Origin: an uncultured delta proteobacterium
GTDB taxonomy: Bacteria; Desulfobacterota; BSN033; UBA1163
Assembly: GCA_963827685.1 (NCBI GenBank)
Contig: CAWHBU010000002.1
Coordinates: forward strand, 384,001 to 448,000
Length of the DNA: 64,000 bases
Direction: 5' to 3'
Each line of letters begins with the position of its first letter. Within the stretch, counting starts at the first letter, position 1. A program made the translations under genes and the position numbers. This document shows, one piece after another, positions 44,322-63,093 of the stretch. The notes under the pieces are model-generated. The model saw nothing but the letters and a program-made list of their open reading frames with translations, made no database searches and had not been told where the DNA came from.

Positions 44322-44334
44322 TTTTCATAATATA

Positions 44335-47956: not shown

Positions 47957-49309
47957 ATGACCGCAACAATAAGCCAGTCGCTCAATATCCTTATCGTGGA
48001 TGACGAGGTCAACATCCGCAAGACTCTGTCCGTCTGCCTTGAGACCGAAGGTCACAAAGTGATTGCTGTCAGCAACTTTCAGGATGCCTTAGCGGAGGCG
48101 TCACGAAGGTCCTTTGAACTTGCATTCGTAGATCTAAGGCTTGGTACGGAAGATGGACTGGATTTAATCCCTCCTTTGCTGGCAGCAGCGCCATGGCTTA
48201 AGGTTATTGTCATTACAGCCTACGCTTCTATCGATACGGCCGTCGAGGCCATGCGACGCGGGGCAACCGACTACATTCCGAAACCATTCACACCCGCCCA
48301 GGTAAAACTGGCGGTTAACAAGGTATTCGAAATGCGTACGCTGGAGCAAAGAGTTGCAGTTCTACAAGAAGACCTTAAACGGTTAAATCCTGAAGTGGAC
48401 TTTTCAAGTTCCAGTGCTATCATGCAGCGGGCTGTGAATCTGCTGCACCAGGTGGCCTCCACTGAAGCCACCATTCTTTTGCGCGGGGAAAGTGGAACAG
48501 GTAAGACCGTGCTCGCCCGCGCCATCCATTCCTGGAGCAAACGGGCCGACAAGCCTTTTGCCGTCATTTCCTGTCCCTCTCTTTTGCCAGAACTTCTGGA
48601 GAGCGAACTCTTTGGTCATGTAAAAGGGGCTTTTACAGGCGCTGTGCGGGATAATCCTGGCCGCATTGCAACCTGTGAAGGTGGGACCCTTTTACTGGAT
48701 GAGATCGGCGATTTACCGGCAAACCTGCAGCCAAAACTTCTGCGCTTTCTTCAGGACAGGGAGTATGAGAGGGTGGGAGATTATACAACACGAAAAGCGG
48801 ACGTCCGCATCATTGCCAGCACCAACAGGGATCTCGATAGAGCAGTCAAAGAAGGCCAGTTTCGCGAAGACCTCTTTTATCGACTCAATGTGATCCAGAT
48901 CGATATTCCCCCTTTGCGTGAACGGCCGGAGGATGTGACGATCCTTGCTGAGAGGTTATTAGCCTTTTTTGGTCGGGCCGGGCATCATCTCTTTCTCGGT
49001 TTTACCCCGGAGGCGCTTCAAGCCCTCAAACAATACCACTGGCCTGGAAACCTCAGAGAGCTGCGAAACGTTGTTGAACGGGCAGCCATTCTCTGTCAAA
49101 CAGACAAGGTTGGAATCGAATGTCTTCCTGAAAATCTGTTGCCAAGTGATTCAGGCGCGAGACCTGGCGATAGGGTCTCTTTGGAGAAAATCGAGGAGGA
49201 ACATATCCGGCGGGTGTTGGCTACGACAAAATCGCTTCAAGAGGCCGCAGATATACTCGGCATAGATCAGGCGACCCTATGGCGCCGCAGGAAGAAGTAT
49301 GGAATTTGA
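47957..49309 (+). CDS. Sigma54-dependent response regulator (NtrC/AlgB-like)
   Basis: Receiver domain, GESGTGKT, ELFGHVKGAFTGA, LLDEIG, WPGNLREL, Fis-type HTH. Confidence 0.93.
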   Translation: MTATISQSLNILIVDDEVNIRKTLSVCLETEGHKVIAVSNFQDALAEASRRSFELAFVDLRLGTEDGLDLIPPLLAAAPWLKVIVITAYASIDTAVEAMRRGATDYIPKPFTPAQVKLAVNKVFEMRTLEQRVAVLQEDLKRLNPEVDFSSSSAIMQRAVNLLHQVASTEATILLRGESGTGKTVLARAIHSWSKRADKPFAVISCPSLLPELLESELFGHVKGAFTGAVRDNPGRIATCEGGTLLLDEIGDLPANLQPKLLRFLQDREYERVGDYTTRKADVRIIASTNRDLDRAVKEGQFREDLFYRLNVIQIDIPPLRERPEDVTILAERLLAFFGRAGHHLFLGFTPEALQALKQYHWPGNLRELRNVVERAAILCQTDKVGIECLPENLLPSDSGARPGDRVSLEKIEEEHIRRVLATTKSLQEAADILGIDQATLWRRRKKYGI

Positions 49310-49351
49310 TATTAGTGGAAGGAAGGATTCGGTGCTTTGTTCCACCTACAA
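49227..49351 (+). repeat. Gene 3'-end segment duplicated at 59872-59986 and 61982-62106
   Basis: CAAAATCGCTTCAAGAGGCCGCAGATATACTCGGCATAGATCAGGCGACCCTATGGCGCCGCAGG...GGAAGGAAGGATTCGGTGCTTTG. Confidence 0.95.
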
Positions 49352-49635
49352 CTAAAGAATTCTCAAAATCATTTGAACTATTGATTTCGATTTGAAAGTG
49401 AGCATAACGCTCAAGGCCAAGAGAAGTGTGAAGGCTCCTTATTGCTCGCATCAATAACATATAAAATTGGTTGCACAAAACTAACTTGAGGCATCGGTAA
49501 CCCTCAATCATTATCTTTTTCAAGGTCTGGCTTCTCTTTAAACCAGTAATCATCAGGTAAATCCTTAACCAATGTTTTAAAGCCAGTGAACGGCTTCATA
49601 TCTTCTTGGAATTTGTTCTGAGGCTTGGGCCCCGA

Positions 49636-50061
49636 TTAATGCCCTGACTGGGTGCCAGCTAGGATTTGGGTAAATACTACATTAGTCTTTCTTGTCTCTC
49701 CGTCTCGAATATACTCAGCATAACATTCCACCCTATGTGAGCCAATGCTAACACCGGGAAGGTACACTTGGAAAGCTCTCTTCGTTCCTAAGGTTAAATA
49801 CGATGCATCCGATACATCAAAACAGTATGGCTCCTGCCCTGATTCATAGATACAGGCTCTTTTAATCTCTGGCTTACCAGCTGCCTCAAAAAAAATATTA
49901 ACCGCAAAGGATGCATTCGCTTGGATACCACTTCCCAGAGCATCTATACTTAATAATCTTACCTCGCCTGAAGCGAGAGGCTCCCTTGGGACCGTAGCAC
50001 AAGAAGAAGCTATCAACAAAACCACTCCACTCAACAAAACAGTTATTAATATAGACCTCAT
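49636..50061 (-). CDS. Hypothetical lipoprotein
   Basis: Lipobox-like IASSC after a hydrophobic stretch; RBS GGAGG. Confidence 0.7.
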   Translation of the reverse strand: MRSILITVLLSGVVLLIASSCATVPREPLASGEVRLLSIDALGSGIQANASFAVNIFFEAAGKPEIKRACIYESGQEPYCFDVSDASYLTLGTKRAFQVYLPGVSIGSHRVECYAEYIRDGETRKTNVVFTQILAGTQSGH

Positions 50062-50150
50062 AGAAATAACCTCCTTCCTATTTTTTTATATCGTGTTATA
50101 CAGCAAATGTGACCAATTTCTTTGCCTTGTAAATCTGACAGAAATCTTAC

Positions 50151-51259
50151 TAATACAAACGCATTAAGTAATGTTACATAGCCTACGAATCTTTTGACAA
50201 GACCATGAGCGAGTTGTTTTACAAACGACAGACCAAAGATTATCAAGGTTTTCAAACCAACGGTTGGTGGTGGATTCATAGCGAACACTGCGCCAAATCC
50301 GTTCTTGCACGTTTAATCCCGGTTGATACGGGGGTAAATATTCGATATGGAGCCTCGGATGTTTTTTAAGAAATTGTTCGATGGGATCGCCTCTGTGCCA
50401 GCGGGCCCTGTCGACATAAAGCCAAATGGTATATTCTTTAAACCTTCCATAGAGGTGGCGCAAAAGTTTGAGAAACCCTTCTCTATCCCCCCGTTTTGTC
50501 TGAATCATGCCATAGCGTCCAAGCAAAGGATTGACCCACCCAGAGATATTCAAGCGGATACGATGCTGGCTGGTGGTGGGAATCTTAAGACGCTTTCCTT
50601 TCTTCGCCCAGCCCCGGCTAAGCCTGGGGTGCATCGTAAAGCCTGTCTCATCCTGGAATACAATTGTCTCTTTTGGCCCCAGGGACTCAAGTTTTTTTTA
50701 AAGCCCGCTGGAACTTTCGGGCTTCTTGGCTTTGTGCTTGAAGATAAGAATAACTCGCTCTCTTTAACCGATAACCCAAATGATGCATCCAGCGTTGGGC
50801 TTGCCGCACCTTCAGGTTTATCCCGAAAGACCGCTTCAGATGAATCGCAACCGTTGGCCCATCCCATTGAGTCCGGTTTAAACCAAATTCCCGCGGAGAC
50901 TTCTCTAAGTGTCCCTCCAGCACCCTTTGAATCTTTGTCTCTAACCGTGAAGGCCTTCCCGATCTTGGCTTGGATTTTAAGAACTCTAAGCCGTCTTTGT
51001 TCACCCCGTGAATCCATCGGCTTAAACTCATCCGGGTCAACCCTAACACCTCGGTTATCCATCCCGGACGTTGCCCTTCAAGCACCAGGAGTAAGGCGGC
51101 TATCTTTATGCCTATCCAAGCCCCTGATATTTGTTCGGCTAATGCTAATAAACGCTCTTTATTGGCCTCTTTATGCTCTAAGATTAATGTGGGATTTTTC
51201 ATGCCCACATATTAACATAAATAAACTGCTATGTCACTTTATTTAGGACGTTCGTATTA
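50151..51259 (-). mobile_element. IS630-family element, two-ORF transposase joined by a -1 frameshift
   Basis: TIRs TAATACAAACGCATTAAGTAATGTTACATAG / rc TAATACGAACGTCCTAAATAAAGTGACATAG with TA ends; HTH ORF 50687-51208; A8C slip at 50691-50699; YVDRARWH, LPPYQPGLNVQERIW. Confidence 0.9.
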
Positions 51260-51410
51260 AATAAAGATTAAACGGGCATTAAATTTAGATTAAGATTTCT
51301 TAACTTCGGCAAATAGAATTTTAAGCTTTTGGGAGAGGGCAATTCACAAAGCGAAGGTTGAACCCTTACTCGGTTCCCTTCACACCTCAATTCCTTCGTA
51401 CCGTAGAGAA

Positions 51411-52534
51411 CTAGTATCTAATTATATAAATAAGCGTACTTATTTTTAGGGTGAACTGATTTGACATAACGCTTGGTCCATTCAAACGGGGCTGCCTTTT
51501 CGTTATGGACGGAAATAAACTCATCGATCGCCTGGCGCAACTGTCGGACGCTTGTAAAGGAGGCGCCCCTCAAGGCATAGCGGCTCAGAAGACTGAACCA
51601 GATTTCGATCTGGTTCAGCCAGGAAGCATGTGTGGGCGTAAAATGAAAATGAACCTTCGGATGGCGTTTAATCCAATGATCCCTCTTCGGTCGATGAGTC
51701 TTCAAATTGTCCATAATCACATGGATTTCCTCGTCCGGATGTTCGGCAACGATCTCGTTCATAAAATCCAGAAACTCCCGGCGACGACGGCGGCCGTAAT
51801 GGCCCGCCTTCACTTGTCCCGTGGCCACATTCAAGGCTGCAAAGAGGGTACTCGTTCCATGCCGTCTATACTCATGGTTGGCTCCCGTCAGCGCCTTGCC
51901 ATTGGGCAGTTTAAGCCACCCCTGAGCCCGTTCCAACGCCTGAATGGCTGGCTTCTCATCCATGCATACCACCATGGCGTTCTCAGGAGGATCCAGGTAA
52001 AGCCCAACAATATCAGCGGACTTCCGTGCAAATTCAGGGTCCGTCGAAATACACCAACTGCGCCGTCTCTGAAGGCTAATCCCATACTTGCGCAACACCG
52101 CCCACACTTCATAATCCGGGATGCTCGTCCTCTCCCCCAGAAGCCTTCCGTTCCACTGGGCATATCCCTTCGGAGGAGCTTCATCGATCTTGCGCAGAAT
52201 TGTGTGTTCGGTCTCTGCGGTGTACTTACGTGGCTGCCCGGGGCGCGGTTCATCAAGCAAACCTGCCAACCCTTCTCTGACGAAACGGCTACGCCATTTG
52301 CAAACGCGTGCAACACGAGTCCTCAGCCTTTTGGCAATCTCCGTGTTACTCTGCCCTTCAGCACCCCAGAGAATAATTTGCGCCCTCTCCGCCATACGCT
52401 TGGGAGTGGTATGGGTTCGAACCAATCGATCCAACTCAGCCCGTTGCTCGGGCTCCAACGTGATTTCTTTTGCTTTCCTGCTCATAATACAGGAAAGTTA
52501 GCATATTACGCTTATTATGTCAAGTAGATACTAG
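51411..52534 (-). mobile_element. IS630-family element, single ORF
   Basis: CTAGTATCTA...TAGATACTAG ends with an inner ATAAGCGTA/TACGCTTAT match. Confidence 0.9.
51418..52485 (-). CDS. IS630-family transposase
   Basis: CMDEKP, HEYRRHGT, IMDNLKTH, TPTHASWLNQIEIWF. Confidence 0.95.
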   Translation of the reverse strand: MSRKAKEITLEPEQRAELDRLVRTHTTPKRMAERAQIILWGAEGQSNTEIAKRLRTRVARVCKWRSRFVREGLAGLLDEPRPGQPRKYTAETEHTILRKIDEAPPKGYAQWNGRLLGERTSIPDYEVWAVLRKYGISLQRRRSWCISTDPEFARKSADIVGLYLDPPENAMVVCMDEKPAIQALERAQGWLKLPNGKALTGANHEYRRHGTSTLFAALNVATGQVKAGHYGRRRRREFLDFMNEIVAEHPDEEIHVIMDNLKTHRPKRDHWIKRHPKVHFHFTPTHASWLNQIEIWFSLLSRYALRGASFTSVRQLRQAIDEFISVHNEKAAPFEWTKRYVKSVHPKNKYAYLYN

Positions 52535-52604
52535 TCCATCTTATCGATTACTGTTTGAAATGTCGTACTGAGGGAAGATTTACAAGAATCACGCTTTCAA
52601 GAAG

Positions 52605-52766
52605 AAGCTTTTGGGCGGGAGTTTGGTCGGAGGCAATCCCCAGTGGAGGTCTGAGGAGGTTGAAAGACCTTAGGAATGCAGGTAAATATTTTAGATTATT
52701 CTGTGAAGTCCGGAGACCTTTGTAACCCGTACTTATTTAACAAACTTAACTACGACCCCTGGGCAT
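52605..52766 (+). repeat. Conserved ~160-bp non-coding unit, copy A (no gene-end duplicate attached)
   Basis: AAGCTTTTGGGCGGGAGTTTGGTCGGAGGCAATCCCC...AACCCGTACTTATTTAACAAACTTAACTACGACCCCTGGGCAT. Confidence 0.95.
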
Positions 52767-52866
52767 GCGATTACCAGTTGAAAGAGAGCATGATGCCCCA
52801 ACCTACCCGCCGTTTCTTCTATGGTTTCTTAACCAAGACAAGCAGATATCCCGATTATCGCCTTGC

Positions 52867-54150
52867 CTAAGGTTCCGTCTCATCGGGATCCTCTATAACG
52901 TCGATCCCGACACCCGGTTTAAAAGGGTAAGAAATTACCCGCGAGGTCGCAAAGACATTTTGCTTGCTGGCCTCCAATAGCTTCTTTGCTTCTGCGACTA
53001 CGGCATCAGTTTGAATTAGCCTCGGCCGGACAGCAACGGCAATCTCAGCATGAAGCAAAATCGGGTTTGCGAAGCTGTCCGCATAGACCTTTGCACCAAA
53101 CTCGGCTTTACAGGCACCCGATGCCAGAAGGTACGTAAACGGCTGTACGAGGCGAACTCGATGTGGCTGAAGTGCTTCCCACTCAAAGCTATATTTCCAT
53201 TCGTCACCTTCTTTTGTCAAGCCTTTACCGCTTAACTTTTCAAGCTTACGTTCTATTTCACTGGGTTCACCCATCTGCAGATTTTCAGCGAGGGAATACC
53301 AAGTTACGGCATATTGGGACCTTGCCGAACGTAAAGGATTCGTTTGCGATACCTGAAAAGCACCTGCCGATGCCGTTATTGACATTTCCACGTAGAGGTT
53401 GCGTATTCCAGATGAACTGATGTTCTTAATTGCCAAGATGGCTGGAACTAATCCAGCTTCCATGCGCGCGTCTTGAAGGACTCGCTCAAAATACTGCTTG
53501 AGCTCGCGATCAATTTCAATATCGGGGGCCGACAGTTTAAGCACGTCGACACCTGTTGACAATGAGTTACCCGCAAGCTCGCCTGTTTCCAGAGACACAA
53601 ACTGGAGATCGAGAGGCAGCGGTTGACCTGAATTGTCCACCCTTTGCAGATCACGGATCTTCAATTCCAGTTGGTTTGCAAATTTGTCACGAAAATTAAG
53701 TGAAGAACCGAAGACCTCTACAAGTGCATGCGATGATATTCTCTCCTTGAAAGTTTTTAGCTTTTCCATCTGGTCAAGATCGACATGGCTAGGATCAACT
53801 GGGACATGGGAAAAATACAGCATCACTGGCTTGCCGGCTTTTGCCACTCGTTCGATTTCTTCCAATGTGCCGCTGTCAGCCTCACCGGTTGGCGTACCGA
53901 GCCTGGTCCAGAAAATCCCGACGAGAAGGTCACAATCATCAACTATCCTGCGGTTAACCGCCTCTTGTGGTCGCACGTTATATTCAGGGGCAGCATGGGT
54001 TTCCCACCTGAGAGGAAGAACGACAACGCGGCGATTGTCCGAATGAAGGTTATTCCAGTCTTGCATCACACGGACAGCTGCTTCACGCTCTTCAAGAACG
54101 TCAGAAGGAGATGCGATGAGAATTCGGTACACGCGAGCGTCATAGGACAT
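52867..54150 (-). CDS. DUF4062-like (TIR/deoxyribosyltransferase-type fold) domain fused to an unknown C-terminal domain
   Basis: ILIASPSDV.EER, RWE, CDLLVGIFWTRLGTPT..ADSGTLEEI. Confidence 0.75.
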   Translation of the reverse strand: MSYDARVYRILIASPSDVLEEREAAVRVMQDWNNLHSDNRRVVVLPLRWETHAAPEYNVRPQEAVNRRIVDDCDLLVGIFWTRLGTPTGEADSGTLEEIERVAKAGKPVMLYFSHVPVDPSHVDLDQMEKLKTFKERISSHALVEVFGSSLNFRDKFANQLELKIRDLQRVDNSGQPLPLDLQFVSLETGELAGNSLSTGVDVLKLSAPDIEIDRELKQYFERVLQDARMEAGLVPAILAIKNISSSGIRNLYVEMSITASAGAFQVSQTNPLRSARSQYAVTWYSLAENLQMGEPSEIERKLEKLSGKGLTKEGDEWKYSFEWEALQPHRVRLVQPFTYLLASGACKAEFGAKVYADSFANPILLHAEIAVAVRPRLIQTDAVVAEAKKLLEASKQNVFATSRVISYPFKPGVGIDVIEDPDETEP

Positions 54151-54522
54151 TAGGGAATCTCACTCTACACCAGAGGTCCACACCGCTAATCGCGCCTCGA
54201 ATATTTTCTAAACCATTGAGGCTTTTCTGCTCAAAAAGGTCTGAATTAGATAAAATTCATCCAGCAAGAAAAGATCGTTTAGCACTATAAAACACAGAAT
54301 TGAGATAATTGGAACAAATTATCGTCGGAATCGGAGCATACCCCATTGCTACTTTTCGTTTATAATATACACCTTTTTCAAAAAATAGCAAAGCGAAAAC
54401 TTCATGAAGAACTTCTCTTTTCTCCTAAATCTTGCCGGCCTCAATCCCGTTTTAACGCTTCCCTACAAATCTTCAGTCTAAGATGACTCTGAGGATCGAC
54501 AATTACTGGTAGAAACATGCAC

Positions 54523-54556
54523 AAAAAAAGGCAGGACTATTTCTAACCCTGCCTTT
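54523..54556 (-). terminator. Intrinsic terminator
   Basis: AAAGGCAGG...CCTGCCTTT hairpin with a T7 tail on the minus strand. Confidence 0.65.
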
Positions 54557-54627
54557 GCTCTTTGACCACTGAATATTGACTTACTTCCCTCGATGATGGC
54601 GTGCTTAGTCCAAGCCTCCATCCCCTC

Positions 54628-55212
54628 CTACCGGTATTTTCTGCGTTGGATTTCACTCCGAATCCTACTCCTCTCCCGCCCATCAGAGACATAGAGGGAG
54701 GGTGGGACATTCCATCCCAATCCCCGATGCTGTCTGATGATTGAATGAAAATTTTTTAGGCCAACCTTCCGCCCTATCGTGTGGATCCGGAGTCGTTTCA
54801 TAAAATAGATCGCATAAGCCTTCTCTGCTCTCTTTGAGCGGAGTCTTCCAAATTTCTGACTGACCAATCCCCGGTTTCTCAGCGTTCGGAAATGGTAAAA
54901 GTATTTTGCTCTTGATCCCCCCGTTTCCTTTTTGATCGTGTGGGAAGAAATAAATTCGCTGTGGGGTTTCTTGCTGATCTGGATCAGCTTCTGACAAAAA
55001 CGACATCCCTCCGTTTGATGCCCTCTGGGTTTCAATGGTCTCTTGATCCCCTGCCTTTTAGAAAAGGCATAAACCGCCTGCCTCGACACTCCATACCTTT
55101 TCCCCAGTTTCTCGAAGGGAAGAGTAGTCCTTTTCAAGTCCCTTAGCAAATCGTCTTCCTTACCCCGAAGTATTCCCCATCTTCTCATTATCATCTTAGG
55201 AACTTTCAGCAA
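54628..55212 (-). CDS. Very basic hypothetical protein with an HTH-like segment (start uncertain)
   Basis: FEKLGKRYGVSRQAVYAF, CRFC; K/R-rich; followed by a terminator. Confidence 0.6.
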   Translation of the reverse strand: MLKVPKMIMRRWGILRGKEDDLLRDLKRTTLPFEKLGKRYGVSRQAVYAFSKRQGIKRPLKPRGHQTEGCRFCQKLIQISKKPHSEFISSHTIKKETGGSRAKYFYHFRTLRNRGLVSQKFGRLRSKRAEKAYAIYFMKRLRIHTIGRKVGLKNFHSIIRQHRGLGWNVPPSLYVSDGRERSRIRSEIQRRKYR

Positions 55213-55410
55213 AATTTTAATTCTTCCATTCCAATCTATTCAATCAGAAACGAGGTGTCAATGAGAATTGGGAGGAGGGTTTAGTCGTCCTTGAATTTTT
55301 GCTAAGCACGGAGTATCTATGAAAAAGAGAGTGCGGGGATGAACTTCGGCCTGCAAATTGAAGACCACTGTTATAAATTGTGATAAAATTAGCTCAAAAG
55401 GACTGGAAAG

Positions 55411-55590
55411 ATGAAGGTATGGGAATACCTTTTAGATTTTTCGGCAAGGATACTTGCTCCGAATTTTCTAAAAATTGGCCTCATCGTTGTTGTTATATGG
55501 CTTCTAATTTCAGGTCTTAGAAAGGGGTTAAGAAAGGCGAGTCGGAATAACGATTCTGAGGAAAATAACGAAGATAACAATAGGGACTAA
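55411..55590 (+). CDS. 59-aa single-TM protein (below the ORF-track cut-off)
   Basis: MKVWEYLLDFSARILAPNFLKIGLIVVVIWLLISGLRKGLRKASRNNDSEENNEDNNRD; purine-rich leader. Confidence 0.5.
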   Translation: MKVWEYLLDFSARILAPNFLKIGLIVVVIWLLISGLRKGLRKASRNNDSEENNEDNNRD

Positions 55591-55685
55591 TTTAGATTTT
55601 TGAATCCTCTTTTAAGAAGTCACTGGGGAGCATCTTCTCAATAGGATTGTGGGTTGGTAGTTCAAATCCCTCCGTGGGCTGTGAA

Positions 55686-55839
55686 TTATCCCGAAAGAAT
55701 ATTCAAAAACTTTTTAAACTTAATCATATCCTCTGGAGAGATATCAATAAATTTTACTCCACACCGATAATCTCCCCAGCTTTCACCCAAATGAATCTCT
55801 GTCCAACCTACCTCGGCCAGCACTTCAACGAAATTCGAC
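55686..55839 (-). pseudogene. C-terminal remnant of a PilZ-domain protein
   Basis: Manual translation VEVLAEVGWTEIHLGESWGDYRCGVKFIDISPEDMIKFKKFL*; no 5' part. Confidence 0.55.
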
Positions 55840-55848
55840 CATATCCTC

Positions 55849-56280
55849 TCAGGGTGGCCAAATGAGAGAAGCGCTGAGACAGTCGCCTTGCTCGTGAAAA
55901 ACTCTTTCCCCCAGAGTCAAGGTTATTCCGACCTCAGAGCAGCATTCGATCGTCCGGGTCCGCTCTTTTGCCAACTTTTCGTTCCAGGAGTAAACACCCG
56001 CTGTATAATATTCTTCAGTCCCGCGGTCGGTACGCACCGAAAATCGGGAGAAGCGCCAAGGTACTCCAAAACGGATTGAAACCGGCCGGTGGGTGACGGA
56101 GTGAATGAATTCAATCCGGCCCTCCTGCCAGGCCCAGAACCAGAATGTATTGGAGCTGCGATTTCCGGCGATTCGGACCGGCCGGACGAATCCCGCCACG
56201 AAAAGGACTGGAATCAGGATAACCGCAAGGGACAAAGTTCTTGTGGAAACCCATTTGCCTTCTGGGGCAAGGTCAATCAC
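55849..56280 (-). CDS. DUF1850-like TRAP-associated protein
   Basis: IEFIHSV motif; coupled to the TAXI gene. Confidence 0.6.
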   Translation of the reverse strand: MIDLAPEGKWVSTRTLSLAVILIPVLFVAGFVRPVRIAGNRSSNTFWFWAWQEGRIEFIHSVTHRPVSIRFGVPWRFSRFSVRTDRGTEEYYTAGVYSWNEKLAKERTRTIECCSEVGITLTLGERVFHEQGDCLSASLIWPP

Positions 56281-57272
56281 TTCAACGTGCCTGTTTCCTT
56301 AAAGTAGCGTAACGAACCCGGGTCGTAAGGAATGATTCCATGAATGAACTTTACCGCATTCGCAGGAGTGGTGTCCTTGGCCGCTTTGGCCGAAGCCTGC
56401 AGTTGCGCCAGATGTTCGAAGACTGCCTTGGTGATGGAGTAAGAATATTTCTCGGGCAAATCCTTTGGTCCCACGAAGAGGTTCCAGAAGGCCAGTGTCG
56501 GGTTGTCCCTGTCGGTCTTGTAGACTTCCTTGGGGATCACGCCCGCTTCCAGCACTCCGGGGAATTTCTGGAGAAGTTTTTTTACCAGGTCTGACGGTAT
56601 GTCCACCAATTCTATCTTACTCCCCTTGCGAGCCAAAGAGGTGGCAAGCTCGGTCACCGAGGCAGTAGGGAGGCCCCCGGACCAGAAATAAGCGTCCAGA
56701 GTTCCTTGTGACATCGCTTCCGACAATTCAGAGGCTCCCAAACGTTCTTGCTTGCCTAAATCGGAAGTCTTCAGCCCGGCCGCATCCAGCACCATAAAGG
56801 CCTCTACCTCGGTGCCCGACCCTGGGGCCCCGGTAGAGACACGCTTTCCCTTCAAGTCGGCTACGGTTTTAATACTTGATCCAGACACGGCCACGAGATG
56901 TAGGTAGTTGGGATACATGGCCCACATGATTCTGATTTCTTTAGCGGGTTTATCTTTGAAGCGATCAAGTTTTCCGGTATATGCAAGGTAAGCCGAATCG
57001 GGAAGGACCGTCCCGAGATAGTAGGTATTCTTGGCCGGGATCGTCCGCCGTTGAATCAGGAGAAGATTGTCCACCGATGCCGCAGTCTGGATGGCGGTTG
57101 CTTCTACTCCAGCGTACTTCGTCAGGATTTCGGCGACTGTCGTCCCGTAGTAATAGTAAACTCCGCCAATGCCACCGGTAGTAACCAAAATCCTGGGTTT
57201 CTCCTCCGCGGCGACGACCAGGGTAGCCAGTCCAAAAATCATTGCCAAAACGATACATGTGATTTTCTTCAT
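56277..57272 (-). CDS. TAXI-family TRAP solute-binding protein
   Basis: TGGIGGVYY, ASVDN, DLKGKRVSTGAPGSGTE; signal peptide. Confidence 0.92.
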   Translation of the reverse strand: MKKITCIVLAMIFGLATLVVAAEEKPRILVTTGGIGGVYYYYGTTVAEILTKYAGVEATAIQTAASVDNLLLIQRRTIPAKNTYYLGTVLPDSAYLAYTGKLDRFKDKPAKEIRIMWAMYPNYLHLVAVSGSSIKTVADLKGKRVSTGAPGSGTEVEAFMVLDAAGLKTSDLGKQERLGASELSEAMSQGTLDAYFWSGGLPTASVTELATSLARKGSKIELVDIPSDLVKKLLQKFPGVLEAGVIPKEVYKTDRDNPTLAFWNLFVGPKDLPEKYSYSITKAVFEHLAQLQASAKAAKDTTPANAVKFIHGIIPYDPGSLRYFKETGTLK

Positions 57273-57360
57273 TCCAACCTCCTCTCACGTTTTGAAAATC
57301 GGGTTAAAGGTGCTTTCCTCAGAAGGTGTCAAGAAATCGCATGCCTTACAGAATGATTCT

Positions 57361-59466
57361 CTATTCGGCAGCGCTGACAGCTTCGGATTTCTTACCCAGG
57401 AAGAACCAGATCGAAACAAGCAAAACTGCCATGTTGACCCAAAGATAAGGTGCAAATAGACCAATAGAAATGATTCCGAGGACCCAACATTCCCATGGGC
57501 GCAACGGCCGCCGTGCATAACCCACCGTGGCTGCTGCCATACAGATCGCGCCCGCCGACACGATTGCCAGGCGAAGGATGAAGCCGGTGATCGCGTCGAA
57601 ACCCGAAGCAGTCCGCCACATTGGCAACAGGAGAAGGGCCGTGCCCCGGTAAGCCAGGATGAAGGAAAAGCCCACGAGATACTTGGGCAAGGCCACAATG
57701 GCCGCATGCCAACCTGTCTTTAACGGGTTCGTTAAAAAAACCGAAGCCGAGGCATACGCGGAGAGGGCCACGGGCGGGGTCACATCGGCCAGAATCGAAT
57801 AATACATCAGGAACATATGTGTGGACAGCAGGGCCGCTTCGGGAGGGATGCCGTTAGCGATGGCTATTTGCACGATGCCCGGGGCCGTCAGGGACGAAGC
57901 CACCACGTATGTCGCCGTTGGCGGAATCCCCATTCCCAGGAGCAAACTTAACACCGCCGCTAAAAAGGTGGCAATAAACAGGCTCTGTCCGGAAACCAAT
58001 GCCATGAACTGGGAAAATTTGTTCGGAAGACCGGTCATGACCATTAAGGTCAGGATCAAGTTGGCACAGACCACGGCTGTGCCGATGGGGATCAAGGTTG
58101 AGAAACCATCAGCCAGCCCTTTCAGGAGCACACGCGGGCTCACTGGACGAAGCGTGGGGTCCAGGTAGCAAAAAATGACGAAGAGAACCACGGCAGAAGC
58201 TACGGCCATGCTGATCGAGTAGCCCAGATAGATGAAGACCACAATTAAAAGGATGGGGACGAAAATGTAGCAGTACCGGCGAAAATACCGCCCACCATAG
58301 CTTTTTTCATTCTCGATGGGCTTCAGCCCGATCTTCTTAACATAAAAATAGTTGTAAGCCATGATGGCCACGAGATAGAGAAACATCGGTCCCAAGGCCA
58401 TGATGCAAACCCATAAATAAGGGATGGAAAGTATCTCCACCATGACAAAGGCCATGGAGCCCAAAACGGGTGGGGTGATCATGGCTATGGTGCCTGCAGT
58501 GGCGGCTATTCCGGAGGCGACATAGCGATCATATCCTGCCTTTTCGAACATGGGCTTGCTGATAGTCGATACGAACTGGGTGTCCGCCGCGCCGGAACCG
58601 CTGAACATGCCCATGAAAACGGAAGCCAGACACGTGACTATGCCTGGGCTGTCGGCCCGCCCGCGGGCGGCCATTGAGGCGATGTTGGCGATTATCCGGC
58701 CCAAATTCAAGACGCTAATCATACCCCCCAAGATGGTGAAGTAGACGAGATACTTCATGGACACGCCGGTAATGAGTCCGAACAGCCCGGCCTCGGTCTC
58801 GCTGAAAAGTTTTCCCAGCAACAGGTCAAAGCCGAAAGAAGGGTGTGAAAAGACGCCCGAGAGCATATCTCCATACAGGTTGTAAAGAAGGAAAATAAGA
58901 ACCAGAGACGGCAGGATGGCTCCGGTATAACGGTAAACCTGGCCGAGCAAGAGAAGAGTGAGCCCGAAACCCATGACGAGGTCCCAAGGTTCCGGTATCA
59001 TGGCCCGCTCAATGATGTCTTGGAAAAAGATCACCAAATAAAGAAAAGCCACGGTGGCGAGGATAGCCCCGACTTTATTCAGCCACGGGCCCGAGCGGGG
59101 ATAAACGGCCGGCAGGACTGCCACCAGCCAAAAAATGGTGGCCACAACATTGAATTGCAGGTTCAACCCCAGCTGCCAGAAGGCATAGAGCGGAAATGCA
59201 GCCAAAATTGCGAAGACAAAAGAACCGACTCCCGCTCGCCTATCGACTCGGATCGAGGATAGAAGGTATCCTGTCAGGAGAAGGAAAAACACGTGAGTCG
59301 CCCTCTGTACCTGGGTGAGGTCCAGGATGGAAATGGATAGTTTTGAGAGCGGCGTGTAAGGGTGAACCACTAAGTACAAGCTGTAGAGGCTGGCGATGAT
59401 CAGGAGCGGGGTGATGATAAAACGTCTGAGGATGCTATCTTGGGTACTCTGGGGTTCTGCGTGCAT
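57361..59466 (-). CDS. TRAP transporter 4TM/12TM fusion permease
   Basis: GMFSGSG, PPVLGSMAFVM, LGMGIPPTATY, ADVTPPVAL. Confidence 0.92.
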   Translation of the reverse strand: MHAEPQSTQDSILRRFIITPLLIIASLYSLYLVVHPYTPLSKLSISILDLTQVQRATHVFFLLLTGYLLSSIRVDRRAGVGSFVFAILAAFPLYAFWQLGLNLQFNVVATIFWLVAVLPAVYPRSGPWLNKVGAILATVAFLYLVIFFQDIIERAMIPEPWDLVMGFGLTLLLLGQVYRYTGAILPSLVLIFLLYNLYGDMLSGVFSHPSFGFDLLLGKLFSETEAGLFGLITGVSMKYLVYFTILGGMISVLNLGRIIANIASMAARGRADSPGIVTCLASVFMGMFSGSGAADTQFVSTISKPMFEKAGYDRYVASGIAATAGTIAMITPPVLGSMAFVMVEILSIPYLWVCIMALGPMFLYLVAIMAYNYFYVKKIGLKPIENEKSYGGRYFRRYCYIFVPILLIVVFIYLGYSISMAVASAVVLFVIFCYLDPTLRPVSPRVLLKGLADGFSTLIPIGTAVVCANLILTLMVMTGLPNKFSQFMALVSGQSLFIATFLAAVLSLLLGMGIPPTATYVVASSLTAPGIVQIAIANGIPPEAALLSTHMFLMYYSILADVTPPVALSAYASASVFLTNPLKTGWHAAIVALPKYLVGFSFILAYRGTALLLLPMWRTASGFDAITGFILRLAIVSAGAICMAAATVGYARRPLRPWECWVLGIISIGLFAPYLWVNMAVLLVSIWFFLGKKSEAVSAAE

Positions 59467-59705
59467 ATTCAGTCTTATTTCTTTATCCAGGAATTAAATT
59501 CTACGAGACCTGGCTTCTTACCTATTTATCCCCCGCCACCCGCCACAATCTGAGGGTGAACTAAATATACGAAAGAACGAAGTTGAATGTCAAGAAGGAA
59601 GACAACAAGATATGAAGGAAGGTTTTAGGCCAGTATTGCAGATAACGATTACCAAATGAAAACTTGCATCATGGGCGAAATCTGTCAGCCGACGACTACA
59701 GGAAA

Positions 59706-59986
59706 AAGCTTTTGGGCGGGAGTTTGGTCGGAGGCAATCCCCAATGGAGGTCTGAGGAGGTTAAAAGACCTTAGGTTTGCAGTTAAATATTTTAGATTAT
59801 TCTGTGAAGTCCAGAGACCTTTGCAACCCGTACTTATTTAACAAACTTAACTACGCCCCCTGGGCATTAACCGAAATCGCTGCAAGAGGCCGCAGATATA
59901 CTCGGCATAGATCAGGCGACCCTATGGCGCCGCAGGAAGAAGTACGGGATTTGATATGAGTGGAAGGAAGGATTCGGTGCTTTGTT
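59706..59986 (+). repeat. Copy B: ~160-bp unit plus duplicate of the regulator 3' end
   Basis: Matches copy A over ~160 bp, then matches 49227-49341. Confidence 0.95.
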
Positions 59987-60196
59987 ACGGTAGAAATAGC
60001 ATATACTAATTAAATGTATAAAGATCACATCACAACTTTTTGAAACTGCATACCCATAAGAGAAAAACACAAAATATTTTGCAGGAGTCTCTATTGAAAA
60101 CGAATCAACCCTTTTGAAATTTGTCCCGCCGGGGGGAAGTTCAGCCAATTCTTCAGAAGGCTAATTTGTTAGGTGGGTTATCATTTCCGGGTAGAT

Positions 60197-61534
60197 CTAT
60201 GAATTATTCTCCTTTGAGTGGTGACTCAATCGCGCAAGCTTCCCACGAACGGAATCAACGTACTCTTTAAGCCTATAGACCTCTCCAAAAAAAGTAAGGG
60301 GCACGCGAATTCGATGGATCGAAGCTTCGATCTGATCAAGTCTTCCCTGATATTCCAATACCCTTTCTGGCTCCGGATTTTTCATTGCATCCGATTCGAG
60401 ATTCTTTAGTTCTCCAAACCAGCGGTAGAATTTGCGGCGGTTCCGCCAGGAGTATAGCCAGGGTATGCCTCGCATTAGAGGAATCAAGACGATGGCCACC
60501 GGCACCAGGATCAAAATCAGGCGGTCAACTAAAACCGCCACCCCAAAAGGAAGGTAATCGAGCAAAAAAGGGCGGCCTTTCTTATAAAATCTCTCCGCAG
60601 AGGTGGACAACGGAAAATCCAGTTCCTTAGGCGAGGGGAATTCTCCTCTCTTATTCAACCAGCCGGCCCTGCTGTGAATCTCCATAGCCGCGTCCAAAAG
60701 CAGATACTGGAGAGCCGGATGCAGATTCTGGCGTACAATCAAACTTGTTGTCGTGGCGACAAGATGAATATCCTGGGGCGGTACTTTCTCCGACAGATTC
60801 AGTATTCCTTCAGGCAAAATGATATGCGACAAGGCTGGAAAAAGCCGGGTATAGGCCTCGGCATGTTTGAAACTCATCAACTTTATTTTTTCGGCGTACA
60901 GAAGTTCCCGAACGAGCGCATTGTCCTCTGTTCCGATTATCATGACTACATCCAGGGTCCCTTCGAGGAGGGCCTTATTGGCGGCGGCGCTGGGAATATC
61001 CAGCAGCAAGGTGGGAGGTTTGGCTGCACCGCTTGCCTTCAGCAAATCCAAGGAAAACTTCCGCGCCCCGCTGCCCTCTGGCCCGATGGCAATCTTCTTT
61101 CCTATAAGCCTCGAAAGGTCATCCCATGTCTCTTGGCTCCGATAAAAAACCCAGAGGGGCGAGTAGCATATTGCCCCGAGGGAAACGAGATTTTTCGTCT
61201 CGGAGGGGGAGCTTGTCCCATCCTGCACAAAACCAGCATCCACTCGCAAGGACGTATCTCCAAGACGCTTGAGGTTTTCCACCGAACCTGACGAGGGGAG
61301 TAGCTCAAGACGGACCTTTTCCCGCGCCAGGATTTTTTTGTACCGCTCACCAAAATTTGCGTAAGTCCCTCGTTCGAACCCAGTGCTCATGGTCAAAGTA
61401 TCCGGAGGTGTCAAATGATAGGCTATGACGATGGAGATGAGGGCGGTTAACAGTACCGAGGCAATAACCACCAGAAGCCTGCGATTTCGTATACCAGGAA
61501 TGAATTTTCGTCCCATTTTCGGTTCTTTGGGCAT
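60197..61534 (-). CDS. Membrane-anchored TAXI-like solute-binding protein
   Basis: GSVENL, DAGFVQDG, IAIGPEGSG, LHPALQYLL, PFLLDYLPF; N- and C-terminal TM; start uncertain. Confidence 0.8.
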   Translation of the reverse strand: MPKEPKMGRKFIPGIRNRRLLVVIASVLLTALISIVIAYHLTPPDTLTMSTGFERGTYANFGERYKKILAREKVRLELLPSSGSVENLKRLGDTSLRVDAGFVQDGTSSPSETKNLVSLGAICYSPLWVFYRSQETWDDLSRLIGKKIAIGPEGSGARKFSLDLLKASGAAKPPTLLLDIPSAAANKALLEGTLDVVMIIGTEDNALVRELLYAEKIKLMSFKHAEAYTRLFPALSHIILPEGILNLSEKVPPQDIHLVATTTSLIVRQNLHPALQYLLLDAAMEIHSRAGWLNKRGEFPSPKELDFPLSTSAERFYKKGRPFLLDYLPFGVAVLVDRLILILVPVAIVLIPLMRGIPWLYSWRNRRKFYRWFGELKNLESDAMKNPEPERVLEYQGRLDQIEASIHRIRVPLTFFGEVYRLKEYVDSVRGKLARLSHHSKENNS

Positions 61535-61815
61535 GTTACACTCCCATGCAGGCAAAGCTTTTGTCGCCGAGTAGTGATAGTGATAAAAACTTGCTTCGGG
61601 ATAGGTTGAACATACAAAAAACAAAGGAGTAGGTCAAGAAAAATCACCAGAAAAATCACCACAAGATATGGGAGTGTCCTCCTTATCCGTTTGAGACCCA
61701 ACCCACCAATAAAAAAGTGAGGGAGGACTTTGGAGGGTCAAGAAAATAACACTGATGATTACCAATTCACATCGAGCATGCTTGGCCAAAGTGTCGGGTT
61801 GTTGACCTCAGTAAT

Positions 61816-62106
61816 AAGTTTTTGGGCGGGAGTTTGGTCGGAGGCAATCCCCAAGGGAGGTCTATCGAGGTTAAAAGACCTTAGGAATGCAGTTAAATAT
61901 TTTGAATTATTTTGTGAAGTCCAGAGACCTTTGTAACCCGTACTTATTTAACAAACTTAACTACGTCCCTTGGGCATTAACCAAAATCGCTTCAAGAGGC
62001 CGCAGATATACTCGGCATAGATCAGGCGACCCTATGGCGCCGCAGGGAGAAGTACGGGATTTGATATTAGTGGAAGGAAGGATTCGGTGCTTTGGTACGC
62101 CTACAA
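61816..62106 (+). repeat. Copy C: ~160-bp unit plus duplicate of the regulator 3' end
   Basis: Matches copies A and B, then matches 49227-49351. Confidence 0.95.
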
Positions 62107-62157
62107 GTCATTGCTGGGAACCGTATTCAAGGATCGAAGATTACGGGATGAAAGAGA

Positions 62158-62235
62158 GGCTAACGTTCGCGTTCAGTGGCGGGAGCCAGTGGGCGAAGCC
62201 CCCTGGTGACCGTCCACTACAACGCGGGGTTAGCC
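62158..62235 (-). other. Integron attC recombination site (78 bp)
   Basis: Minus strand GGCTAACCCCGCGTTGTAGTGGACGG...CCGCCACTGAACGCGAACGTTAGCC; complementary outer boxes, internal hairpin, 1 bp after a stop codon. Confidence 0.85.
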
Positions 62236-62236
62236 G

Positions 62237-63064
62237 TCATTTCGCAAGTGTGGTTATGAGTCTTCCGCCTGGGCTTAGGACCCGGAAGTCCTCGATGACT
62301 TCATCGTCATTGCTCGCAATGGCACCGGCAAGAGAACCGAGGATGACGTACGCCATGTCATGCACGGAGTGCTCGGCGCGCTCAAGCACGCGGGCAGTAG
62401 GACTTGTCGGTACGTTGCACTGGTACCGTTCGAAGATGCGAAGAGCGGCGAGCAATTGGCATTGAACCCACCTGAACCACGCCCAATCGGGACTGATTTC
62501 CGCAGGCATCGGCGCCTTTGGTGGAAGATCTTCTCGTAAGAAGGATGCATACACAGTGCGGACAACCTCGGGATTCGTGGCGACCCTGGTCCGGGCTGCT
62601 GCAACCGCAGCAGGAAAGTCTCGGAACTCGATTCCGATCAACTCCGGGAAAAACGCATGGACCGACTGGCAACGCCGGAGAAACGACTGCGCGTCTTGGT
62701 AGACCTGGTTGCGCCATGACTGGAGGGTTTCGAGAATCTCACCTCCGGCTATGTAGGTTCCGTTGCGCAGCTTCGGATTGAAGATGTACGAACCCTGGAT
62801 GACGTGCCGTTCAAGCGGACCGCATGGGGATTGGTTCTCGATCTCTGTACGCAGTAAGGTGCCTACGTTCGGGAGAAGCGCGAATGAGCCTGGGCGACTT
62901 GGCAGCTTCGAAAAGCACCGCACTTGGCTCTTCGGGCTCGCGGTCATGAGCTCGTAGAACAGATTCTGGGAAACCATGACTGAGTGGTCTCGACACAGCG
63001 CGGTGATCAACTCTGATGGCGCGCCATCGAGGTAGCTCTTATCGAGTATAAGCGCGGCGGACAC
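62237..63064 (-). CDS. PIN-like domain protein in a gene cassette (GTG start)
   Basis: LILDKSYL, FYEL, HDMAY, ASND acidic-residue pattern; starts 9 bp after GTTAGCC. Confidence 0.55.
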   Translation of the reverse strand: MSAALILDKSYLDGAPSELITALCRDHSVMVSQNLFYELMTASPKSQVRCFSKLPSRPGSFALLPNVGTLLRTEIENQSPCGPLERHVIQGSYIFNPKLRNGTYIAGGEILETLQSWRNQVYQDAQSFLRRCQSVHAFFPELIGIEFRDFPAAVAAARTRVATNPEVVRTVYASFLREDLPPKAPMPAEISPDWAWFRWVQCQLLAALRIFERYQCNVPTSPTARVLERAEHSVHDMAYVILGSLAGAIASNDDEVIEDFRVLSPGGRLITTLAK

Positions 63065-63073
63065 GCTGGTGGC

Positions 63074-63093
63074 GGCTAACTTATTTTTTATGC
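63074..63093 (-). other. attI-like cassette entry junction
   Basis: Minus strand GCATAAAAAATAAGTTAGCC; GTTAGCC is complementary to the GGCTAAC of the attC; composition shifts from AT-rich to GC-rich. Confidence 0.55.

Follow-up and report, generated by a model that had tools for sequence, protein, structure and literature searches.

Exactly 59 bp upstream of a 162-bp repeat unit, a short motif of the form GATTAC-N4-TGAAA (the box) recurs along an island that lies behind a sigma-54-dependent response regulator gene (R) in the window, the whole 64-kb stretch of DNA analysed. The same arrangement was found at a diverged unit copy from a second genome. We tentatively propose, with a probability of roughly 0.45, that the box is a putative protein-binding site located in the outer arms of a junction that is att-like and large, in which the length of the spacers is constrained and their sequence is free. 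The island itself resembles a series of tandem elements, none with an integrase, stacked behind the regulator gene.

Enrichment and form of the box motif

The exact motif (GATTACNNNNTGAAA) was searched on both strands of the window and gave 4 matches, at 52546, 52769, 59647 and 62139, all on the + strand, while 0.06 were expected and 0/100 shuffles got to 4. With up to one mismatch, 6 matches were obtained against 1.44 expected, a number reached by 1/100 shuffles. These were the four exact copies, 49383 (GATTTC) and the inverted copy at 49537-49551, and all of them fell within 49383-62153. A relaxed pattern, loosened so as to take in the TCACA box at 61757, also gave 6 matches, all on the + strand, none of them within bases 1-49000 and all within 49001-64000 (in 200 runs of a Markov simulation, mean 1.7 and maximum 5). 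In this respect the first-pass annotation is supported: the motif does not occur at random, and in the window it is restricted to the island.

Alignment of the copies revealed a longer form, GATTAC-N4-TGAAA-NN-GAGCAT. The weak variants at 54501 and 59983, already listed as such in that annotation together with the inverted copy, are real relatives of the box, as both have GGTAGAAA after TTAC; box 54501 also has a ~39-bp spacer of the kind preceding boxes 49383 and 62139. The hexamer reads GCTTTC, GATTAA or GATTTC in some copies, and TTAC is therefore not invariant. The strong boxes all run in the same direction.

Within a ~60-bp boundary segment, made up of the 15-23 bp motif and a poorly conserved linker of ~44 nt, conservation is highest in the box. 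This segment stands at both edges of each cargo cassette, in one orientation throughout (Table 1), and boxes lie specifically at cassette edges in both the window and the second genome. Two flavours can be distinguished. Alpha boxes mark the right edge of a cargo, 18-119 bp beyond its own promoter, with the unit following exactly 59 bp downstream. Beta boxes mark the left edge and bear the extension TGAAAGAGAG..TAAC, and four of them are preceded by a 38-39-bp spacer beginning CCTACAA. Half of the boxes have no unit and are sited at gene 3' ends.

Table 1. Features of the island behind the regulator gene R (window coordinates)
Feature	Position	Strand	Evidence
Sigma-54-dependent response regulator gene R, intact, island target	47957..49309	+	ORF; Pfam, NCBIfam matches
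O0, repeated gene-end segment (last 26 codons of R and ~35 bp downstream)	49228..49344	+	direct-repeat family D2; codon comparison
Beta block 0: 38-bp spacer starting CCTACAA, box GATTTC-GATT-TGAAAGTGAGCATAAC (49383), linker	49345..49441	+	
Inverted beta-type box GATTACTGGTTTAAAGAGAAGCC	49527..49551	-	1 mismatch; nhmmer E=0.17
Cargo 1: 141-aa gene, frameshifted IS630-like gene (50164-51208), intact IS630-like element (51411-52535)	49636..52535	-	
Alpha box 1 (GATTAC-TGTT-TGAAA) and 44-nt linker	52546..52604	+	
Unit A, 162 bp	52605..52766	+	
Beta box 2 (GATTAC-CAGT-TGAAAGAGAGCAT) and linker	52769..52827	+	
Cargo 2a: 427-aa protein, N-terminal DUF4062 / PDC-S60 (candidate defence) domain	52867..54150	-	
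Beta block with weak box: 39-bp spacer starting CCTACAA, AATTAC-TGGT-AGAAA (54501)	54462..54520	+	
Cargo 2b: 194-aa wHTH protein, small ORFs, TAXI solute receptor (56277-57272), fused TRAP permease (57361-59466)	54628..59466	-	
Alpha box 3 (GATTAC-CAAA-TGAAA) and linker	59647..59705	+	
Unit B (162 bp) and TAACC	59706..59872	+	
O1, displaced R gene-end copy	59873..59988	+	direct repeat; codon comparison
Weak box TGTTAC-GGTA-GAAAT; its TTAC is the end of O1; no spacer	59983..59997	+	
Cargo 3: TAXI-like 475-aa gene, own promoter (61637-61609)	60197..61637	-	
Alpha box 5 (GATTAC-CAAT-TCACA) and linker	61757..61815	+	
Unit C (162 bp) and TAACC	61816..61982	+	
O2, displaced R gene-end copy	61983..62099	+	direct repeat; codon comparison
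Beta block 6: 39-bp spacer starting CCTACAA, box GATTAC-GGGA-TGAAAGAGAGGCTAAC (62139), linker	62100..62197	+	
Cargo 4: 316-aa and 240-aa genes, no known family; runs past window end	62237..64000	-	

Several details of the map should be further pointed out. R carries receiver, sigma-54 AAA+ and Fis-type HTH domains according to Pfam and NCBIfam. In our reading, a CTAG sequence 10 bp to the left of box 52546 received the intact IS630-like element of cargo 1, and TA was duplicated. Only the dinucleotide GC separates unit A from box 52769. A terminator hairpin follows weak box 54501, and cargo 2b has its own promoter (TTGACA-18-TATATT, 59593-59564).

The 59-bp offset is kept while the linker drifts

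The units (AAG[C/T]TTTTGGGCGGG...) start at 52605, 59706 and 61816 and GATTAC starts at 52546, 59647 and 61757, which reproduces the reported 59-bp offset in 3/3 window copies. The hand counts of the first-pass annotation for the 59-bp segments, 34/59 identical positions for B versus C and 28/59 for A versus B, were recovered exactly, and A versus C gave 25/59. At the unit start the identity jumps from ~50% to 91-94%, with 148-154/163 positions matching among the units of the window. Linkers share 15-24/44 positions in most pairs, where chance gives ~11 (sd 3), and their length is identical.

An independent, diverged copy of the unit was available on L001, a 6-kb contig of a Thermodesulfobacteriota MAG, and it is 76-77% identical to the units of the window. 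As a check set beforehand, the offset was sought in this further copy, and it holds: the box variant GCTTTC-N4-TGAAA stands exactly 59 bp before the unit. A box-type 15-mer is therefore found at this distance in 4/4 DNA unit copies (A, B, C and L001) by ungapped alignment. Between the two genomes, the much better conserved unit has acquired a 1-nt and a 9-nt indel, while the net length of the linker is unchanged. An initial genome scan with an exact unit 20-mer found no copy. Metagenomic copies came as 8 short ORF proteins, four of which (P0002, P0006, P0012 and P0013) extend back to the box position. By hand reading of the translations, all four are compatible with a box and 3/4 retain 49 nt from pentamer to unit; the hexamer-to-pentamer spacing varies among these translated copies.

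L001 carries three relaxed-pattern boxes, namely the unit box and two more, all on one strand, whereas simulations gave a mean of 0.15 and 0/500 runs reached 3. The intervals between the boxes are occupied by single small genes that have promoters of their own. A fourth weak box can be read by eye on this contig. Identity to L001 is 74-80% in the alpha block (window 61572-61814) and in the beta block (62100-62164), while the intervening genes differ. Alpha box 5 and its linker, together with 61572-61717, are homologous to L001 5302-5502, and beta block 6 to L001 3904-3968. When L001 5359 is compared with window 61757, box and linker are identical at 45/59 positions, and from +60 L001 continues into unrelated DNA with no unit. 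In this one cross-genome comparison, +59 is an exact homology breakpoint. In L001 the stretch from the linker to the next spacer is not just empty but has been replaced, and an IS3 disturbs it.

The regulator gene end is repeated along the island

The end of R (its last 26 codons and ~35 bp) recurs after units B and C, not after unit A. The three segments O0, O1 and O2 are 90-95% identical over 125 nt. Compared with O0, O1 has 3 synonymous and 0 non-synonymous differences and O2 has 2 synonymous and 1 non-synonymous; the distinct coding changes among the copies amount to 3 synonymous and 1 non-synonymous in 78 nt. Such mostly synonymous change is as expected if the gene-end copies once served as real gene ends. 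Direct repeats of the R 3' end bound the elements while R stays intact, as in island accretion, and an element-side arm is conserved as well: unit-TAACC precedes both O1 and O2, and is kept in L001, while unit A has no O. The motif itself matches the earlier remark that it is not recognised from known elements. The remark does not extend to the architecture of the island, as tandem elements that each carry a copy of the target gene 3' end are of a known kind.

A large att-like junction as the preferred explanation

In the explanation that we favor, site-specific recombination would have inserted small elements into the regulator gene at its 3' end, giving a tandem array. Each element would bring its own gene-end copy, so that the regulator gene stays intact. 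The internal junctions, which run alpha box, linker, unit, TAACC, O, spacer and beta box over ~460 bp, may then be attP-like hybrids. The unit and O would form the functional centre of the recombination site, and the boxes would be arm-type or accessory protein-binding sites of a recombinase acting in trans. If the boxes are such outer-arm sites, the 59 bp from box to unit and the 38-39 bp from CCTACAA to box are expected to be kept while the sequence between drifts. Recombination is here the proposed process, protein binding the putative role of the box, and the spacing presumably an architectural constraint.

Several observations weigh against this model. In its simple form it needs extra deletions or other targets for unit A and the L001 unit, because unit A is without a gene-end copy and what comes after the L001 unit is a promoter, then a TPP-enzyme gene, instead of the regulator gene end. 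The sharp +59 breakpoint between L001 and the window is not predicted by crossover at the unit/O junction. Moreover, ~460 bp is large for an att site.

The first-pass annotation had pointed to a co-occurring recombinase or targeting protein, but none was found, which also counts against the att-like model. No Phage_integrase, Resolvase or Recombinase domain was detected in the 53 ORFs of the window or the 8 ORFs of L001, and no tyrosine or serine recombinase or targeting protein in either; the array continues beyond base 64000. The only mobility genes present are ordinary IS transposase genes (IS630-like, IS3, IS110) and one rve transposase gene at 37378-39324, about 10 kb upstream, near which HMMs of box and unit found nothing.

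Alternative explanations

A protein or RNA-protein complex might instead read the box and set insertion or crossover exactly 59 bp downstream, which we consider rather unlikely. The unit, with or without a captured gene end, would then be the end of a small inserted element, and the unit-less boxes would be unoccupied targets. Tn7-like and CRISPR-associated transposons typically insert at a fixed distance, tens of bp, from the site that they recognise. The invariant offset in all four DNA copies, the break at exactly +59 in L001, the rise in identity at the unit start and a linker that keeps its net length despite saturated substitution all agree with such targeting. However, the window contains no inverted copy of the unit as a partner end and no visible target duplication, no TnsB/TnsC/TniQ-like set adjoins the units there, and the sole rve gene is remote. 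The replaced and IS3-disturbed segment of L001 is also not simply an empty target. The earlier proposal that cargo ends are defined by a short motif plus a ruler therefore stood only in part: the exact +59 break and the offset kept over a saturated linker speak for it, but the three unit-less boxes show no +59 boundary as sharp as that at the unit boxes, and beta boxes have no common boundary at +59. Architectural spacing within a large att site explains the 59 bp as well as a cutting ruler does.

It is likewise doubtful that the boxes are recombination sites of a new integron-like, IntI-independent cassette system of Thermodesulfobacteriota, in which an enzyme acting in trans would recognise GATTAC-N4-TGAAA and exchange DNA at a measured 59 bp. 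In such a system, sites of ~60-110 bp, with conservation in their length and in a short core, would bound single genes that have their own promoters. The 162-bp unit would serve for docking or as a platform, and inversion besides excision would be hinted at by the inverted box at 49551. IntI, attI and Pc were not found in the window, and the head of the array is the sigma-54 regulator gene.

Box and unit might also form one non-coding RNA or regulatory region, with the box as promoter, operator or 5' part of a transcript and with repeats that exist because the module was duplicated along with the cassettes. This is improbable. The layout of conserved head, variable linker and conserved body would suit it, as would the position of alpha boxes just beyond strong cargo promoters and one hairpin change in L001 that is G-U compatible on the + strand only. 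However, Rfam 15 gave no match on units or boxes at the gathering threshold or at E<5, and the folding energy was no better than that of shuffles on either strand (z +0.87 and +1.0). Covariation was essentially absent: of the 36 and 45 predicted pairs, a single one covaried on each strand, although four sequences give weak power. The distance from box to -35 element varies (18, 53, 77 and 119 bp), unlike that of an operator, half of the boxes are unit-less and at gene 3' ends, and by inspection the boxes show neither a consistent -10 after TTGAAA nor a sigma-54 promoter pattern. Single-stranded DNA folds of 8 box regions, which bear on an attC-type hairpin, ranged from z -2.2 to +1.5, the low values being ordinary terminators. 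Of the 6 regions downstream of beta boxes, 62150-62245 alone stood out (z -5.3), and its behaviour is that of a terminator for the convergent gene. No support was found for RNA, coding, attC-hairpin or promoter readings.

Passive homology is more improbable still. The box-linker copies would descend from one ancestor by segmental duplication, the box being the slowest-evolving stretch and the 59 bp reflecting that no indel has occurred yet. Linkers do exceed the chance mean of 11 in B-C (22/44), C-L001(i) (32/44) and B-L001(i) (24/44). But the box persists in two genomes and several metagenomic copies next to a nearly randomised linker, and the indels fall in the conserved unit with no net indel in the linker. 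The placement of boxes at cassette edges in both genomes and the one inverted box with a beta extension also argue against it.

IS608-like IS200/IS605 elements use TTAC as a cleavage or target site, and a single-strand (HUH-type) mobile system in which the TTAC of the box plays this part, with direct-orientation ends and subterminal structure at a fixed distance, is very improbable: the direct orientation of the strong boxes, the short stems around some boxes and site 59983, where the final TTAC of the gene-end copy replaces that of the box and the second half of the box follows at once, agree with it, but Pfam found no HUH transposase, Rep or relaxase domain in the window or L001, TTAC varies, and the box regions fold no better than shuffles apart from the terminators. 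The short stems share this lack of folding excess and are not conserved in L001. A supposed covarying stem around boxes 59647 and 61757 was rejected, as it is missing from their close homologue there.

Significance and comparison with known systems

Provided that a recombination site works through the box and its measured spacers, the locus shows how very small cassettes move. These cassettes carry defence and transport genes and no mobility gene, and they stack up downstream of a regulator gene, in a phylum that has been little studied. The combination of box, 59 bp and unit can serve as a sequence handle for finding the missing recombinase by co-occurrence in metagenomes, and a recognition site that combines a strict length ruler with a free spacer sequence would be attractive as a recombination tool, too. 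Should the box prove to be no more than an arm-type site for an ordinary integrase, the island is a tidy and unsurprising case of island accretion.

The island shares with Tn7-like and CRISPR-associated transposons a fixed distance, some tens of bp, that separates the recognised sequence from the point where the inserted DNA starts (59 bp, 4/4 here), as well as a fixed orientation and a site downstream of a conserved gene. Unlike in those systems, there is no inverted second end, visible target duplication or adjacent TnsABC/TniQ set, and the "inserted" part would be just 162-290 bp. IS200/IS605 elements and their miniature derivatives share direct-orientation ends, a short target-like tetranucleotide within the motif and measured distances between a recognised feature and the junction. 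Unlike them, the island shows no Pfam domain of the Y1 HUH transposase TnpA or of TnpB in the window or L001, its short stems at some sites do not stand out from shuffles as subterminal hairpins, and the tetranucleotide is not invariant.

The resemblance to integron attC arrays (formerly "59-base elements") lies in mostly single-gene cassettes, sites in one orientation, and a bounding site of ~60-110 bp conserved in short core and length but not in sequence. Apart from the lack of IntI, attI and Pc in the window, the differences are that the box-linker is not an imperfect palindrome and folds as single-stranded DNA no better than shuffles, that the cassettes have their own promoters, and that a near-identical 162-bp unit and a gene-end copy stand between cassettes.

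The islands at ssrA of Dehalococcoides are arranged in tandem and bounded by repeats of the target-gene 3' end, with a conserved motif by each repeat and with integrase-less members, according to the portion of the account cited here (PMC3146451). Tycheposons, in the cited part of their description, show repeated integrations at one site and degenerate remnants (bioRxiv 10.1101/2020.12.28.424599). As far as these portions go, the present island agrees with such tandem 3'-end islands in its intact target gene, in several islands each ended by a 3'-end direct repeat, in the conserved element-side sequence by each repeat, in the occurrence of islands without integration genes ("cis-mobilizable"), and in a cargo of defence and transport genes plus IS elements. 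It differs from what they describe in its target, a sigma-54 regulator gene in place of a tRNA or tmRNA gene, in its long repeat (~115 bp), in that no integrase at all is seen, and in the very small size of its elements (1.8-10 kb). Single-gene sub-cassettes bounded by a 15-23-bp motif, as present here, are a feature that the cited portions do not describe for ssrA islands or tycheposons.

Conservation of the box and its 59-bp offset

The first-pass annotation had described a GATTAC-N4-TGAAA motif (the box) at a fixed distance before each copy of a 162-bp repeat (units A, B and C). When the window sequence was read, the coordinates of all three claimed GATTAC starts were verified, and each unit start was located exactly 59 bp past its own box (3/3 copies). 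The hand-counted identities of the 59-bp segments also proved exact, with 34/59 for B versus C and 28/59 for A versus B; segments A and C are identical at 25/59 positions, and the units are pairwise alike at 148-154 of 163 positions. The box motif is strongly non-random in the window, since GATTACNNNNTGAAA gave 4 exact matches in 64 kb versus 0.06 expected. With at most one mismatch, 6 matches were obtained, every one within 49383-62153 (five on the plus strand and one inverted at 49537-49551). A relaxed pattern admitting the TCACA copy found six plus-strand sites and none in bases 1-49000. Alignment of the copies extends the motif to GATTAC-N4-TGAAA-NN-GAGCAT.

Further copies were sought outside the window. 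Plasmid and phage collections yielded no similar DNA (blastn, distant mode), and an exact 20-mer of the unit gave 0 matches in 185,579 species-representative genomes. The ORF running through the unit, used as query, retrieved three metagenomic proteins, and a profile of those added five diverged short ones. A degenerate pattern built from blocks common to these proteins located one 6-kb contig of a second genome, L001, whose unit is 76-77% identical to units A, B and C. GCTTTC-CACT-TGAAA-CA-TTGCAT begins exactly 59 bp upstream of this unit in an ungapped alignment, and hence the offset holds in all four copies known as DNA. Two more boxes on the same strand of L001 match the relaxed pattern (3 in total versus 0.15 expected; 0/500 simulations reached 3), and a fourth, weak one was recognised by eye. 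One of the two lies in a beta block (left cargo edge) 80% identical to window 62100-62164, and the other in an alpha block (right cargo edge) homologous to window 61572-61814 (74-79% identity), cargo promoter included. Between its boxes L001 carries other genes than the window does, namely an IS3 and two genes of 98 aa and 124 aa, both with strong promoters.

Four of the eight short metagenomic proteins (P0002, P0006, P0012 and P0013) reach the box position, and by hand reading of the translations all four would be compatible with a box. On the same reading, the 49 nt from pentamer to unit appear to be kept in three of them, P0006 being one nucleotide shorter, and P0002 and P0012 seem to have a shorter spacer between hexamer and pentamer. 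The observation of box and offset is confirmed and extended.

Organization of the island

As listed in the table, the landmarks lie beside an intact regulator gene; ARAGORN detected no tRNA or tmRNA target in the window. The last 26 codons of this gene together with about 35 bp 3' of it are repeated immediately past units B and C. Over 78 coding nt, the distinct differences between these copies and the resident end are three synonymous and one non-synonymous, the pattern to be expected if the copies had functioned as genuine gene ends. The DNA between the landmarks is cargo, on the minus strand throughout.

Features of the island, its neighbourhood and the related contig
Feature	Position	Strand	Description
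Sigma-54-dependent response regulator gene	47957-49309		intact; Pfam/NCBIfam domains
Alpha boxes	52546, 59647, 61757		right cargo edge, past the cargo's own promoter; followed by 44-nt linker and unit
Units A, B, C	52605, 59706, 61816		162-bp repeat
Beta boxes	49383, 52769, 62139; weak 54501, 59983		left cargo edge; read TGAAAGAGAG..TAAC
Cargo		minus	141-aa gene with two IS630-like elements
Cargo		minus	DUF4062/PDC-S60 candidate defence gene
Cargo		minus	wHTH gene, then TAXI-TRAP transporter
Cargo		minus	TAXI-like gene
Cargo		minus	two genes without known family, extending past window end
Inverted beta-type box	49527-49551	minus	GATTACTGGTTTAAAGAGAAGCC; about 130 bp from box 49383, the pair facing each other
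IS630-like gene	50164-51208		frameshift-split
IS630-like element	51411-52535		intact; 10 bp left of box 52546
427-aa protein	52867-54150	minus	N-terminal 170 residues match PADLOC PDC-S60 (E 4.6e-28), weakly DUF4062
Hairpin	62158-62235	plus	imperfect; -29.1 kcal/mol as ssDNA, z -5.3, 0/200 shuffles; starts GGCTAAC, ends GTTAGCC
c-di-AMP riboswitch	44327-44456	plus	RF00379, 91.7 bits; upstream of operon
APC-family transporter	44493-46100		riboswitch operon
TrkA-like protein	47279-47944		riboswitch operon
Candidate transposon	36606-40446		rve-type transposase flanked by 133-aa and 345-aa genes (no family at E<1e-5)
rve-type transposase	37378-39324		648 aa
L001	JBAVGF010000347.1		Thermodesulfobacteriota MAG contig; degenerate-pattern match

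A 38-39-bp spacer beginning CCTACAA precedes three beta boxes in the window, and the weak box at 54501 divides cargo 2 into two cassettes. The inverted beta-type box and box 49383 could represent either an invertible segment or the remains of an inverted cassette. The flanking bases suggest insertion of the intact IS630-like element at CTAG, with TA duplicated. At 51324-51345, AAGCTTTTGGGAGAGGGCAAT matches the unit over its initial 11 bases; the HMM of the unit gave no report there at E up to 10, and the match may be due to chance. The hairpin, which is very stable, occupies the interval between box 62139 and the convergent 316-aa gene, directly past the stop of this gene, and is probably its terminator; none of the other beta boxes has an equivalent hairpin. 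The 5' leaders at window 61572-61620 and L001 5465-5545, which belong to different cargo genes, have in common a conserved promoter and tandem repeats of TATCAC type (GTGATA on the plus strand of the window); this may be an operator common to cassettes. In L001, an IS3-family element without obvious target duplication (3988-5214) separates an alpha linker from the beta spacer that follows it, which makes this a rearranged junction, and a partial IS110-family transposase gene occupies the contig end (3-962).

Upstream, the riboswitch operon comprises the APC-family transporter, a Usp-like protein, the TrkA-like protein and, last, the sigma-54 regulator. The rve-type transposase and its flanking genes may together form a transposon of their own, set between housekeeping genes, and neither box nor unit was found near it.

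A proposed tandem array of integrase-less elements

In our preferred reading, to which we give a probability of about 45%, small elements without an integrase entered the 3' end of the regulator gene by site-specific recombination and make up the island as a tandem array. Each element would have carried a replacement gene end into that site. Internal junctions would then be attP-like, in the order alpha box, 44-nt linker, unit, TAACC, gene end, spacer of about 39 bp and beta box. Unit and gene end would form the functional centre of the recombination site, with the boxes as putative protein-binding sites in its outer arms, and the geometry of the recombination complex would keep the boxes at fixed distances.

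Three observations strain the tandem-array reading. A recombinase or targeting protein co-occurring with the box, which the first-pass annotation had proposed to identify, was not found: neither the window nor L001 contains genes for an integrase, a resolvase or an HUH enzyme, or a Tn7-type set. Neither the 194-aa nor the 316-aa cargo protein reads as a recombinase; the former, a wHTH protein, belongs to a small cluster from Thermodesulfobacteriota, and the latter resembles unnamed proteins alone. Moreover, unit A abuts a box directly without a gene end, and next to the L001 unit the place of the gene end is taken by a promoter and a TPP-enzyme gene. A further strain is the +59 breakpoint. The L001 homologue of box 61757 matches to the last linker base (45/59), after which unrelated DNA replaces the unit; as judged from this alignment, position +59 is a real module boundary.

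Alternative readings

This breakpoint is best accounted for by the model of the first-pass annotation, in which a motif plus a measured distance sets the crossover or insertion point. However, that model has no second element end, target duplication or targeting genes to show, and we regard it as unlikely.

More doubtful still is an RNA or regulatory role of box and unit. Rfam gave no match for the units at gathering and E<5 thresholds, neither strand of box plus unit folds better than shuffles (z +0.87 and +1.0), and RNAalifold on the four copies found covariation essentially absent. A covarying stem seen by eye around boxes 59647 and 61757 was rejected, being absent from the close homologue in L001. 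An attC-like hairpin at the box-linker was not supported by folds, the lone exceptional hairpin being the terminator-like one. As for promoters, TTGAAA on the plus strand has no consistent -10 by inspection and the promoter list is empty there, and a sigma-54 promoter in the unit lacks a consistent -12 element by inspection. The distances from box to -35 of four cargo promoters (18, 53, 77 and 119 bp) speak against a fixed-position operator. In A, B and C, an ORF of 56-68 aa runs open from box through unit, and we conclude that it is incidental. A coding unit was rejected because P0006, P0007, P0010 and P0012 read its 5' half in other frames, in L001 the frame is closed by a stop where the unit begins (our own reading), and differences among A, B and C number about 4 synonymous to 6 non-synonymous (hand count), with the supposedly non-coding tail best conserved. 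The unit ORF matched nothing in Pfam, NCBIfam or PHROGs, and no longer relative was found among 1.84 billion representatives.

Passive homology of the box-linker copies is improbable. The linkers are near-randomised, most pairs being identical at 15-24/44 positions versus a null mean of 11 (sd 3), with C versus L001(i), a linker of L001, as the exception (32/44). Nevertheless, net linker length is equal in all DNA copies, while in the far better conserved unit the two genomes differ by indels of 1 nt and 9 nt; a length kept despite sequence drift argues for a length constraint. Guide-like identity between the two linkers of one cassette was rejected at chance level (11 and 14 of 44 ungapped, identity alone being compared). 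Least credible is an HUH-type single-strand system for which the TTAC of the box would serve as the site.

Comparison with known systems

That the motif could not be recognised from known elements was borne out for the motif itself. Motif and unit match nothing in the libraries searched. Titles and summaries of the literature on a sigma-54 regulator gene as attB site or on Desulfobacterota cassette arrays do not describe the motif, and at summary level no description of motif or unit was found. According to the parts of the source consulted, Dehalococcoides ssrA islands are tandem, bounded by repeats of the 3' end of the gene with a conserved motif beside each repeat, and some carry no integration genes (PMC3146451); on that account, their architecture is the same as that proposed for the present island. 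Tycheposons, as portrayed in the portions consulted, integrate repeatedly at one site, each newer arrival shifting its predecessors inward, with degenerate remnants staying behind (bioRxiv 10.1101/2020.12.28.424599), and can be likened to this island for their repeated one-site integrations. The island type is already known from such precedents, and what is new here is its insertion target, a regulator gene, together with the boundary motif at measured distances and the sub-cassettes made up of one gene and its own promoter.
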